Shown here piece by piece: positions 1,656-6,220 of a DNA stretch of 32,000 bases (position 1 is the first letter of the stretch; every line of letters begins with the position of its first letter). Origin of the DNA: Candidatus Thorarchaeota archaeon. GTDB taxonomy: Archaea; Asgardarchaeota; Heimdallarchaeia; Hodarchaeales; Hodarchaeaceae. Location of the stretch: assembly GCA_048882505.1 (NCBI GenBank), contig JBHLRO010000003.1, positions 60,001 through 92,000 on the forward strand, given 5' to 3'. Position numbers and translations under genes: made by a program. The notes beneath the pieces are model-generated. The model made no database searches. It had not been told where the DNA came from and was given only the letters and a program-made list of their open reading frames with translations.

Positions 1656-3218
1656 TCATTTCTTTTCCCAGCCCTCCACTATCTGCTGGGCCGAACTAAC
1701 ATATTTTTCCAGTTCCTCCTCAGTTCTATAAAGTTTCTTTAGAATCATTCTTTCAAACATGGTACTAAACTGTGTAAGCTCAATTCGATCACTTAACGAG
1801 GGTTCCATGTCTGAGATTTTGTTCCATTTGTCAAGATTCCGACTTAATGCCTTTTTTTCCAGCGAAATTGCGTAAGTAAGCTTTTTCAAGCCTTTTTCCT
1901 GAGAGAGGACTTCAGCCTGTGTTAAAAGTTTCTCTGCATTCTCAATATCCAATTCAAGTAATGCTAGACGTGATTGAAGTAAATAAATTTCCGCTAATAG
2001 CCAGTACGACGATTGTGACTTTGCCACCGTTAATAAACGCGTGATTACCTGTTTTAATTCTTTGAAAACTTCTTCATTCCCTGTTGCCTTTAATTCAAAA
2101 ACCAATAGCTCTCCTAGGTTTAAGAGAGCGTCTATAGTTAATTCATACCAGATTATCGATTCTTCAGCAACCTGTCGAAAAATAATTTGAGCTTCCGTCT
2201 TATCCGTAAGTCTCCCACTCGTCTTGAAGATCATTGCCCTAGCAAGACGCACCTTTTGTTCACTAACAGCAATAAACCTTTTTTTCAACGATTCTTGCAT
2301 TTCCTTGTGTATTTCCTCCCTCTCGTCGGAAGTTAGGTCTTTTACGTAGTACTTGATGGTGTTATACAAAATTTCGACTCTCATTGCATATTCTTGGATG
2401 TTTCTAGATACCTGAAGGGCTTCTTCCAGGTATTTTCTTCCCGAATCAAAATCTCCCTTCATACTATAGGCCTGGCCTATATTGTTGAGCAATCGGCTTA
2501 CGTTGAATTGAGAACCTATGGATTCAAATGCTCTTAAGCTCCTGGTAAAAAATTCCAACGCTGCATTCAATTCCCCTCTTGCGACATTAGTTGCTCCGAT
2601 TCCATTTAGAATATCCGCTGGAATCTGCTGGTTGTCAACCGCATCTAGGAGAGGTAGACTATGTCTAAAGTAGTTAAGGGCTTGATCAAGCTCGCCCTTA
2701 CTCAAATATAAATAACCTAAGCTACCGAGACATCTAACCTTCTGTTCTACGTCGTTGATTTGTTTGCTAAGACCAAAGGCCTTCTCATAATATTTAAGTG
2801 CAGAATCAGGGTTACTGGCCAAATAGTATAATCTTCCGATCTGGTAATAGAAACTGGCCTTCATTCGAAGAGTTTCAAGTTTCTGTCCTTCCAATAGACA
2901 ACTAATAATCTTCTCCTCCTCACTCGCTAGATTTAGCGCCTCTGAAACGTTACCATCTAAACGATGGGCGAGAATGAGATTGTTAAGTGCATCAAATTCC
3001 CTTGCTTTATTACTGACCCTCCTACTTTTTTCTAGTAGCTCAGTTGCGAGTTTTTTTCCTATCCCAGTTTCTCCTAAACGAAGATAAAGGGTACTTCGGA
3101 GAAATAGGGCCAAAAGTTTATCGTTTTCCCCTAAGATATTATCCAGTTGGCTGAGAGCGGTATCAAACTTTTCAAGGAGGCTGATTTCCTCTTTCTGATG
3201 AAAATAATGCTCAAACAA
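1656..3218 (-). CDS. TPR-repeat protein of the Asgard/Heimdallarchaeia type
   Basis: 520 aa with several canonical TPRs (LGSLGYLYLSKGELDQALNYFRHSL; LNGIGATNVARGELNAALEFFTRSL; LNNIGQAYSMKGDFDSGRKYLEEAL). The helical C-terminal region reads LLAEIYLLQSRLALLELDIENAEKLLTQA. Confidence 0.9.
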   Translation of the reverse strand: MFEHYFHQKEEISLLEKFDTALSQLDNILGENDKLLALFLRSTLYLRLGETGIGKKLATELLEKSRRVSNKAREFDALNNLILAHRLDGNVSEALNLASEEEKIISCLLEGQKLETLRMKASFYYQIGRLYYLASNPDSALKYYEKAFGLSKQINDVEQKVRCLGSLGYLYLSKGELDQALNYFRHSLPLLDAVDNQQIPADILNGIGATNVARGELNAALEFFTRSLRAFESIGSQFNVSRLLNNIGQAYSMKGDFDSGRKYLEEALQVSRNIQEYAMRVEILYNTIKYYVKDLTSDEREEIHKEMQESLKKRFIAVSEQKVRLARAMIFKTSGRLTDKTEAQIIFRQVAEESIIWYELTIDALLNLGELLVFELKATGNEEVFKELKQVITRLLTVAKSQSSYWLLAEIYLLQSRLALLELDIENAEKLLTQAEVLSQEKGLKKLTYAISLEKKALSRNLDKWNKISDMEPSLSDRIELTQFSTMFERMILKKLYRTEEELEKYVSSAQQIVEGWEKK

Positions 3219-4255: not shown

Positions 4256-4682
4256 TTACAAGACCGGATTATAATAGTATTTAAGAAAGTACTCGATTAT
4301 ACTGTTATATCTTGAGTCTTTTTTTCTTTGATTAATATTCGACCCAGAAAATTGGGGATGAATTATTAAGAAATTGTCCCCGTGGGAATTTAATTCTCAT
4401 ACTGAGGAAGGAGCCGTCAGTTATCATCATTACTTGTTCCATTACATTGGACATAACTTGCATCGTTAAATACATTGAAATGATTAACATATTGCGTTAA
4501 ATTCTAATTTCTACCGACCATGGATAGCCTTGGCTATTCAAGATGGCATCTTGTTAAATATATGTCGAAGAAAACTGATTCCTGTATCACATGTTTTATT
4601 CATGATGGTTGGTAAGGTTCATAAGTGAAATATTCCTCATTGAATTTTTTAAAGTGGACCAAATACACTTGTTCGGTTCTTA

Positions 4683-5585
4683 TTGGAAAGGGTACCAATC
4701 AACTTAGGTGACGGAAATTTAGTTTTAAAGGAAGTCGATTCCCTGAAAAGTCTCGCTATCCTGTCTCATAAGGGCGGTGTTGGAAAAACAAGTATTGCTG
4801 TTAACTTAGGTTGCCATCTCGCCAAAATTGGAAAAAATGTCATCATTCTTGATAACGATTTTTCTGGGCCATCGCTAGTAACTTTTTTTCAAAAGAATAC
4901 CTCCGTAAATTGGTTAAACGATTATTTAATGACAGGAGAAAATCTAGATCTTTGTCTTCAAGATGTATCACCCTCATTGGACTTATCAGGTAGGCTGTAT
5001 GTCGGTTTTGCTGATCCAACTCCCGAACGGATTCAAACCATTATTCGAATTGATCAAAAAACCTCCATTGCAATGTTAAGACATCTAATCACCCTAAAAA
5101 AGGCCGTCCGATCTCCGCCATACGATATTGACTACTTAATTGTAGATTGTTCTCCAGGGACAGGGTATAGCACAGTAAATGTCATATTGACCACAGATTC
5201 AAGCTTATTTATTGTCAAATTAAGTAATGCTGACCTTTATGGCACATCTCAAATGATTTCGGGGCTTTACACACAATTGAAGAACCGGACCCTGGTTCTT
5301 GCCAATCTAATACCAAGTAACGTGCTAGTTTCAGGAAACTTATCCCTTATTGAACAACTGATTGAGAAACGATTTACTCAAGAGGTTGGTGACAAAGTTG
5401 TGGAGTTTTTAGGTTGGATTCCGACAGATCTAGAACTTCAAACAGTTGAATTTAATGAAGCGGTGAAGAGCCTTAAGGAACAACCTTCTCAAAGAAATAT
5501 TTTCACGTTGCATAATCCTTCACACATCTTTTCAAGAATTCTGATTGATTTAATTCCGACACTATTTGGAGAGGAAGGCTACTGA
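4683..5585 (+). CDS. MinD/ParA-family (SIMIBI) ATPase
   Basis: Deviant Walker A SHKGGVGKTS, then ILDNDFSGPSL, FADP, and switch II YLIVDCSPGTG. The start may be TTG 4683 or CTG 4743. Confidence 0.92.
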   Translation: MERVPINLGDGNLVLKEVDSLKSLAILSHKGGVGKTSIAVNLGCHLAKIGKNVIILDNDFSGPSLVTFFQKNTSVNWLNDYLMTGENLDLCLQDVSPSLDLSGRLYVGFADPTPERIQTIIRIDQKTSIAMLRHLITLKKAVRSPPYDIDYLIVDCSPGTGYSTVNVILTTDSSLFIVKLSNADLYGTSQMISGLYTQLKNRTLVLANLIPSNVLVSGNLSLIEQLIEKRFTQEVGDKVVEFLGWIPTDLELQTVEFNEAVKSLKEQPSQRNIFTLHNPSHIFSRILIDLIPTLFGEEGY

Positions 5586-6220
5586 TCGTTTATGCAGTCT
5601 ATTTTATTCTGGAAGACGGTAGAACCATCCTTTCCGAAACTTACCAGAATCCTGATAATATACCGAATGAGGTGTTATTTGGAGGCTTGATTACGGCACT
5701 ACAGCACGTGGCAGCGGCCATGACACAAAATAAATCTGAAATGCGGACGATAGAAATTGAAGGATTAAGTTACCACATCAGGTCATTTGGTCTTGTTAGG
5801 GTAATTCTAGTTACTGATTTTTCTCAATCCCCTGAGACAATCATCCAAACGCTCGGGATGAGGTTCTTGAAGATTTATGGAGAACGCTTGTTATCAGATG
5901 AGATCTTGCTTGATCTTAACATCTTCCTACCATTCAAGAAAGTGATTTCTGAAATTCTAGGAGAGGAAATCGTCGACGGATCGAAATCCATAGTTCCTAG
6001 TAAGGCCTTAACAACGGGCGAGATTTACAGTCTTCCTCATGAACTTCAGGACGCTGCTCTAGCCTTGATTTCTCTCGGAGAGGCTGATGTCGCAACGATT
6101 GCTACAGAATGTCAAGCTACCCCTGATTTAGCTTTTAAAAAGTTAAAAAGACTCCAAGAGCTAGGTTATATTGGGAAAAAGGATATTGGTGGCCAAATGG
6201 TGTTCTTTTGCTCGATCTGA
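5582..6220 (+). CDS. Longin-like domain fused to a C-terminal winged HTH; probable CTG start overlapping the MinD stop
   Basis: The frame is open upstream of the GTG at 5672: (L)IVYAVYFILEDGRTILSETY...NEVLFGGLITALQ...TIEIEGLSYHIRSFGLVRVILV, a longin beta-beta-alpha-beta-beta-beta pattern. The C-terminus ELQDAALALISLGEADVATIATECQATPDLAFKKLKRLQELGYIGKK is TrmB-like wHTH. Confidence 0.8.
   Translation: MIVYAVYFILEDGRTILSETYQNPDNIPNEVLFGGLITALQHVAAAMTQNKSEMRTIEIEGLSYHIRSFGLVRVILVTDFSQSPETIIQTLGMRFLKIYGERLLSDEILLDLNIFLPFKKVISEILGEEIVDGSKSIVPSKALTTGEIYSLPHELQDAALALISLGEADVATIATECQATPDLAFKKLKRLQELGYIGKKDIGGQMVFFCSI

Follow-up and report, generated by a model that had tools for sequence, protein, structure and literature searches.

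Longin domains are a hallmark of the eukaryotic membrane-traffic and nutrient-signalling machinery, and they dock and switch small GTPases. Can such a domain also belong to the switch of a P-loop ATPase of another class? The question is raised by a two-gene operon on the forward strand of a 32,000-nucleotide (nt) stretch of DNA, hereafter the window, from Candidatus Thorarchaeota archaeon (NCBI GenBank assembly GCA_048882505.1, contig JBHLRO010000003.1, positions 60,001 to 92,000). Its first gene (positions 4743-5585 of the window) encodes a MinD/FlhG-like ATPase, and its second (5582-6220) a partner protein made of a longin domain, a linker and a winged helix-turn-helix (wHTH). The two products probably form a dedicated ATPase-adaptor complex, an optional system of the ParA-wHTH kind, in which linker and wHTH provide the coupling and the longin domain is an accessory head. 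An earlier note, made from the sequence alone, had instead proposed the longin domain as the regulator of this SIMIBI ATPase, with the wHTH binding DNA.

Is the pair a unit beyond this one genome? Using tblastn and hidden Markov model (HMM) scans of the fetched loci, the ATPase gene was found directly upstream of the partner gene in 26 further distinct loci, with partner identities from 92% down to about 27%. These loci spanned several GTDB families of the phylum, were all Asgard where named, and included partners detectable only by HMM. The distance between the ATPase stop and the partner start ranged from -4 to +38 nt and was mostly 0, -1 or -4; 25 of the 26 junctions measured fell between -4 and +16. 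Exceptions to the arrangement comprised extra partner copies without an ATPase gene (L005, L010 and L011), a contig end (L025) and one odd arrangement (L026), and tandem partner paralogues occurred in L003, L008, L009 and L013. The synteny of MinD-type and longin-wHTH genes across Asgard genomes, which the earlier note had put forward for survey, is thus conserved and tightly coupled.

The two genes were also duplicated together. A second complete pair was found on contig C13 of the window's genome, with an ATPase 48% and a partner 41% identical to those of the window pair on C3. Within each of the two pairs, the ATPase and the partner had their nearest relatives at the same foreign locus, which means that the pair was duplicated as a unit. 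Pairwise identities in the ATPase family and in the partner family were correlated with r = 0.95, a value inflated by the shared ancestry of related genomes.

Furthermore, a 598-amino acid (aa) protein encoded in the same genome (L064:1580-3373, G000 contig C2) joined the parts in the domain order of the operon. Its residues 34-274 aligned to the ATPase profile over 232 columns (hhalign 82%, E 1e-5) with a degenerate Walker A motif, its residues 535-593 aligned to the partner linker and wHTH (hhalign 90%, E 2e-6), and a weak longin match lay between them. A structure search with the middle of this protein returned only weak, unnamed Asgard clusters. Fusions of this sort are classical evidence of a link that is functional and probably also physical. 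A Rab-like GTPase gene was located 322 nt downstream of the fusion gene, and beyond it a TrmB/MarR-type wHTH gene on the other strand. Other candidates for related cases were set aside: among long database hits examined for a fusion of ATPase and partner, P0215, P0225 and P0240 were other wHTH or leucine-rich repeat (LRR) proteins, a 404-aa protein of contig C10 considered as a MinD fusion was a membrane protein with a longin tail, the C22 ATPase was an ordinary ParA-like gene, and the TPR neighbours of the operon, considered as longin carriers, showed no relation by hhalign. The C10 gene (C10:8451-9662, minus strand) encodes a multi-pass membrane N-terminal region followed by a C-terminal longin domain (HMM E 5e-12). 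The window's genome contained about 30 longin-like matches, and in many cases the match was the C-terminal part of a longer protein.

What kind of protein is the partner? Its 212 residues comprise the longin domain (residues 1-130; 5582-5971), a flexible linker (residues 131-146; 5972-6019) with low predicted local distance difference test (pLDDT) values at residues 133-135 and, from column counts, an invariant P139 and a conserved L143, and a wHTH at about residues 147-212 (6020-6217). A total of 41 homologues of about 210 aa were found with full-length coverage, all the named ones being Asgard, and the partner matched no Pfam or NCBIfam family. The AlphaFold2 (AF2) model, built from a 21-row alignment, reached a pLDDT of 81. 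It displayed the longin topology beta-beta-alpha-beta-beta-beta-alpha-alpha (DSSP order E3-10, E15-20, H29-46, E55-59, E62-68, E72-79, H85-104 and H118-130), and the N-terminal helix of roadblock domains was absent; the winged helix of the model spanned residues 145-210. In an exhaustive structure search the top matches were all longin domains, namely VAMP7 (Z 13.3), AP-3 sigma (13.1), Sec22 (12.9) and the SRX domain of the signal recognition particle receptor (11.9), followed by sedlin, other TRAPP subunits and a Lokiarchaeal longin domain (8yqg); Foldseek assigned a probability of 1.0 to the same set of VAMP7, AP sigma, Sec22 and SRX. The C-terminal domain matched the winged helices of TFE-alpha, RPC62 and MarR (Z 9.6-10.1, root-mean-square deviation 1.5-1.8) and, weakly, Csa3/CasR helix-turn-helix models. 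The N-terminal domain as modelled is a true longin fold, and the longin-like domain with a C-terminal wHTH that had been read from the sequence is borne out by both the model and the fold searches. Within the longin domain, the beta3-beta4 hairpin (E-G-L-S-Y-H-I-R-S-F-G) and, in helix 2, a G-x-R-F motif were nearly invariant in alignment A1.

Which part of the partner belongs to the ATPase? In a sister genome (L033:559-2699), an ATPase of the window type, 55% identical to the window's, was preceded by a gene for a 397-aa AbrB-LRR-wHTH protein, whose last 80 residues were 46% identical to the partner linker and wHTH. A Ras-like GTPase gene lay convergent and downstream at this locus. A further pair on contig C29 of the window's genome (L039:4969-6488) consisted of a 226-aa protein with a long helix and a wHTH, encoded upstream of a 264-aa ATPase (KGGTGKT). 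This ATPase was 27% identical to the window's and shared the C-terminal motif of the family, and its wHTH partner aligned to the window wHTH with 63% probability (E 7e-5). The linker motif (P139/L143) was common to the longin-, LRR- and helix-wHTH partners. Across the ATPase clade, the constant element of the partner is therefore the linker with the wHTH, and the N-terminal head varies among longin, LRR and long helix.

Conversely, in a sister clade of longin-wHTH proteins of about 210 aa, which is widespread in other Asgard families, an ATPase neighbour was found in 0 of 20 loci. Examples of this clade are L041, L048, L051 and L059 (about 2490-3160 in each), and in several loci the gene is oriented divergently from that of an adjacent Alpha_Helical plus tRNA_bind protein. 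A reading of the basic linker as a ParB- or MinE-like peptide that activates the ATPase was not kept as a specific claim: conservation of its lysines is confined to the Hodarchaeales clade, and the P/L motif also occurs in the unlinked clade.

The ATPase side of the system was variable in its own way. In four sister genomes the same ATPase subfamily formed the N-terminus of proteins of 565 to about 900 aa, one of them cut by a contig end (L060:3261-5969, plus strand; L061:866-3553, minus strand; L062:2-1696, minus strand; and an open frame over L063:911-1738). Their ATPase scores equalled that of the C13 paralogue. In the two that were scanned against Pfam (L060 and L061), the ATPase was followed by a Roc/Ras-type GTPase domain and a C-terminal DUF4145, which belongs to the HEPN superfamily typical of defence contexts (PMC3710099). 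This ParA-Roc-HEPN architecture was not found in the preprint by Li, Burroughs and Aravind (bioRxiv 10.64898/2026.10.19.760177) considered below.

The window ATPase itself, 280 aa long, matched the Pfam families ParA, AAA_31 and CbiA, and carried the deviant Walker A motif KGGVGKT with the signature lysine (4770-4790). No NCBIfam model reached its cut-off: TIGR01969 (minD_arch) scored 46.2 bits against 201.75, TIGR01968 41 against 212.9, and the KGGVGR model 48.6 against 90. In an alignment of the window ATPase with 24 relatives (A2, 25 sequences), K10, G11, G12, G14, K15, D39 (Walker A') and D135 (Walker B) were invariant. Because the catalytic residues are invariant, the protein should be an active ATP-dependent dimerising switch, and by its residues it looks catalytically competent. 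The AF2 model (pLDDT 89) was closest to the solved folds of FlhG, FleN and MinD (template modelling score, TM, 0.7-0.8; Foldseek E 1e-12, also for Soj), followed by Soj and ParA, with FleN-FleQ complexes among the closest structures. A conserved helix at residues 262-274 showed an i, i+1, i+4, i+5 hydrophobic pattern ending in L-F-G, for which core packing and membrane binding are both possible. The protein resembles MinD, FlhG and FleN, whose partners are MinE, FliY and FleQ, in its closest folds, its signature lysine and its C-terminal amphipathic-looking helix. It differs from them in scores far under the family cut-offs and in a partner unrelated to MinE, MinC and FleQ.

Has a system of this composition been described? 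The earlier note knew of none, and an ATPase partner goes unmentioned in earlier Asgard surveys that treat longin and roadblock proteins. However, Li, Burroughs and Aravind (bioRxiv 10.64898/2026.10.19.760177, 22 October 2026) described a mainly archaeal "ParA-wHTH system" comprising a ParA gene and at least one wHTH gene. In its simplest form the wHTH sits behind a long N-terminal helix, and in some cases the wHTH protein carries a fused domain of the profilin-longin-like or V4R type. According to the same authors, profilin-longin-like domains are often found alongside NTPases of the TRAFAC and SIMIBI classes, and the place of MglA next to MglB can be taken by ParA. They predicted, by computation only, an immune role in which the system intercepts or coats invading DNA. 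Both Asgard pairs display the same coupling of ParA and wHTH genes, the C29 pair matching the simplest form and the window pair the longin-elaborated form. Compared with that work by description, the window pair likely belongs to the ParA-wHTH kind. The claim of an undescribed arrangement therefore falls: what is new here is another ParA-wHTH example with a longin domain, of a kind that had already been predicted computationally.

Is the system core or accessory? The window ATPase type was present in 16 of the 22 genomes of the genus, in 1-3 copies. The six genomes without it were 70-91% complete and had at most the C29 type, which is more evenly distributed, as a single copy in 17 of the 22. 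The patchiness, together with the change in copy number, the swapping of heads and the effector-like fusions, argues for an accessory conflict- or signalling-type system. The observations point to the cassette as an optional, duplicating accessory that is old and not core machinery.

On the preferred reading, the operon would encode an ATP-driven dimerising switch of the ParA clade with a MinD/FlhG-like fold, together with a dedicated adaptor, and the two most likely act as one complex. The linker and wHTH would be the element through which the adaptor is coupled to the ATPase, nucleic acid or both, and the longin domain, as one of several swappable heads, may act as a sensor or oligomerisation platform. 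A complex prediction with two ATPase chains, ATP, Mg and one partner chain (A2, A3) scored 0.03 against a mark of 0.32 and has no weight either way. We infer physical binding, DNA binding and biological role alike; for the last, a defence or conflict-type function is a tentative choice, and a regulatory one in the manner of FleN and a positioning one are each unlikely.

Several observations weigh against this reading. In the ConB2 assemblage of the ParA-wHTH system, the hallmark is an arginine where the second Walker A lysine would stand, and the wHTH is described as "rapidly evolving" (bioRxiv 10.64898/2026.10.19.760177). In contrast, the lysine was retained in the window ATPase and its 24 aligned relatives, and only the distant linked locus L035 had KGGTGRT. 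Between the window and its 92%-identical relative, the ratio of non-synonymous to synonymous differences per site (pN/pS) was 0.07 for the ATPase and 0.12 for the partner (0.08 for the longin domain versus 0.23 for linker and wHTH). Both genes are thus under strong purifying selection, and over this timescale the wHTH shows no visible sign of rapid evolution. The wHTH is acidic, with a mean net charge of -3 (the longin domain has -7). In two loci (L003:1-5929 and L007:1-3881) the cassette was situated directly downstream of genes for Rad50 (SMC_N) and an Hrq1/MrfA-like helicase (domains DEAD, Helicase_C, WHD_HRQ1 and MZB), which would also suit a housekeeping role on DNA. Mre11 (Metallophos) ahead of the cassette was seen in L003 only, since L007 begins inside the Rad50 gene; L003 also carried an extra partner paralogue upstream of the ATPase. 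The genes neighbouring the operon in the window, encoding a TPR protein, an unknown 271-aa protein, a RIO kinase, a rhodanese-MBL protein and an M20 peptidase, do not form a defence island, and PADLOC found only generic P-loop, HTH and TPR matches in the window. No relatives were found among IMG/VR viral contigs, PLSDB plasmids and INPHARED phages, collections that hold few Asgard elements.

As for the wHTH, DNA binding, which the earlier note had assigned to it, is plausible. Because the domain is net acidic and its recognition helix is variable, being poorly conserved across the partner family, that activity is not evident.

Could the pair be housekeeping machinery for partition or positioning, like ParABS, SegAB or McdAB? 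The wHTH would then bind a site on the chromosome or on a cargo, the ATPase dimer on nucleoid or membrane would move or position that cargo, and the longin domain would multimerise the adaptor. A deviant Walker A ATPase with a small adaptor bearing a putative DNA-binding domain is the classic two-gene layout, and ParA-ParB, SegA-SegB and McdA-McdB share with the window pair the ATPase and small adaptor operon, the tight translational coupling and the adaptor-specific pairing. The strong purifying selection on both genes, the position after Mre11-Rad50 and helicase genes in two loci, and the chromosomal occurrence of the cassette in several Asgard families all suit this explanation as well. However, the window adaptor combines longin and wHTH in place of a ParB, ribbon-helix-helix or disordered McdB-type protein, and it lacks similarity to ParB or SegB, consistent with its match to no Pfam or NCBIfam family. 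Across the genus the cassette is optional, being absent from 6 of 22 genomes and varying from 0 to 3 copies, and the adaptor is acidic. Over the region searched (4256-4760) only chance-level repeats of 10-18 nt were found and no centromere-like array, whether of direct or of inverted repeats, which also tells against the partition-type switch suggested at the outset. Replacement of the head by LRR or helix, and fusion of the ATPase to Roc and HEPN, would be unusual for a core segregation machine. On balance, a housekeeping positioning system is unlikely.

A second alternative is a switch like that of FleN and FleQ, in which the ATPase would bind the wHTH protein in an ATP-dependent manner and tune it as a transcription factor, the longin domain sensing a ligand or partner. 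FlhG and FleN, including the FleN-FleQ complexes, are the closest folds of the ATPase, the partner ends in a MarR/TFE-like winged helix, and the pairing is one-to-one and co-duplicated. Nevertheless, no conserved target operon adjoins the pair, the neighbours differing between loci, and the acidic domain with its poorly conserved recognition helix fits a transcription factor badly. FleQ, moreover, belongs to the AAA+ enhancer-binding proteins, to which the partner is not related. We regard this explanation as quite improbable.

The third alternative returns to the opening question. Here the longin domain itself would be the nucleotide-state regulator of the SIMIBI ATPase, resembling a GTPase-activating protein, a guanine-nucleotide exchange factor or a platform, in parallel with the longin and roadblock regulators of small GTPases. 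Its fold is genuine, the near-invariant hairpin and G-x-R-F motif suggest a conserved interaction surface, and by pN/pS the partner is most tightly constrained in its longin domain. The association of profilin-longin-like domains with SIMIBI NTPases and the displacement of MglA by ParA beside MglB, both reported by Li et al., agree with it. Known arrangements offer a parallel: in NPRL2/NPRL3, FLCN and MglB-MglA, as in the window pair, a longin or roadblock platform precedes a winged helix and is encoded with a P-loop NTPase switch. Foldseek listed GATOR1 and SEAC chains for the partner (E about 4e-4; TM to NPRL2/3 0.27-0.36). The window pair differs from NPRL2/NPRL3 and FLCN in having a SIMIBI ATPase, not a TRAFAC small GTPase, and a single wHTH, with no DENN or NPRL2 C-terminal domain, and the neighbour survey of the loci found no Rag-type GTPase linked to the pair.

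The regulation proposed in the earlier note accordingly stands in part. The conserved coupling, the co-duplication, the fusion, the true longin fold and the lack of a consistent small GTPase nearby support a tie between a longin protein and a SIMIBI ATPase. Against the longin as regulator, close relatives of the ATPase are paired with LRR-wHTH or helix-wHTH partners that lack a longin, the shared part being linker and wHTH, and the sister longin-wHTH clade is unlinked to any ATPase. Because linker and wHTH are the constant element, the longin is more likely to be an accessory module for sensing or oligomerisation than a core regulator of the ATPase. It is doubtful that, in the archaeal lineage closest to eukaryotes, a ParA/MinD-type ATPase truly has its nucleotide state regulated by a longin platform or uses one as an effector platform. 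Were it so, the partnership of longins with NTPases would predate the small-GTPase systems of eukaryotic trafficking and reach beyond them, and the fused paralogue of pseudo-ATPase, longin and wHTH, with its Rab-like GTPase neighbour, would form a bridge between the two types of switch.

The last alternative, that the longin-wHTH protein works for a small GTPase and has the ATPase as a neighbour only through the packing of operons, can hardly be credited. Longin domains are classical small-GTPase platforms, and GTPase genes do adjoin the pair in two loci, as well as the gene of the fused paralogue. However, small-GTPase genes are not enriched next to the pair, with 3 in the 171 kb that the loci cover and a genome-wide density of about 1 per 98 kb, and the linkage to the ATPase holds across deep divergence, with co-duplication and fusion.

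On the preferred reading of an ATPase with a dedicated adaptor, the operon provides a small, expressible longin-ATPase pair from Hodarchaeales-type Asgard archaea, with which one can ask whether longins served other P-loop switches before or beside GTPases. The same pair offers a tractable means of testing the ParA-wHTH immunity proposal, which is purely computational.

Where do the two genes begin? The ATPase frame is open over 4653-5585 and the partner frame over 5549-6220, both on the plus strand. The CTG at 5582 of the partner frame overlaps the TGA stop of the ATPase (5583-5585) in a 4-nt CTGA (5582-5585), which reads TTGA in the 92%-identical relative. With the open frames, the KGGVGKT motif and the Pfam matches, this agrees with the earlier description of an intact MinD-like ATPase whose stop overlaps the next frame. 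No ATG, GTG or TTG precedes 5672 in the partner frame, yet 20 of 20 partner homologues in alignment A1 start with M-I-V-Y-A-V-Y at the codon corresponding to CTG 5582, where the start codon in relatives is TTG or ATG and in the window the non-canonical CTG. Comparison with the 92%-identical relative over the first 30 partner codons, all ahead of the first canonical start, gave 7 synonymous differences and no non-synonymous one; these codons are therefore translated. By these comparisons, translation of the partner begins at or very near 5582, and P0003, the 166-aa product called for the window's genome, is a truncated call because the translated codons extend back to about 5582. A purine-rich, Shine-Dalgarno-like GGAGAGG (5568-5574, plus strand) lies 7 nt ahead of this start, also codes for the ATPase C-terminus, and occurs in relatives too. 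The CTG showed no variant in the probable source run (depth 28.7) and was kept in a strain contig from a different sample of the same study.

For the ATPase, the start had been placed at TTG 4683, which gives a reading of 300 aa. Homologues span just 91-93% of this reading and start with M-KSLAILSHKGG at the codon corresponding to CTG 4743, where the 92%-identical relative also has CTG; TTG 4683, in turn, is TTA in the close relative. On these grounds the gene was placed at 4743-5585, and its native start is most likely CTG 4743, not TTG 4683, leaving 4683-4742 (plus strand) as a possible 20-codon N-terminal extension that is probably not native. Both genes of the pair thus appear to begin at CTG (4743-4745 and 5582-5584), the homologues having ATG, TTG or GTG.

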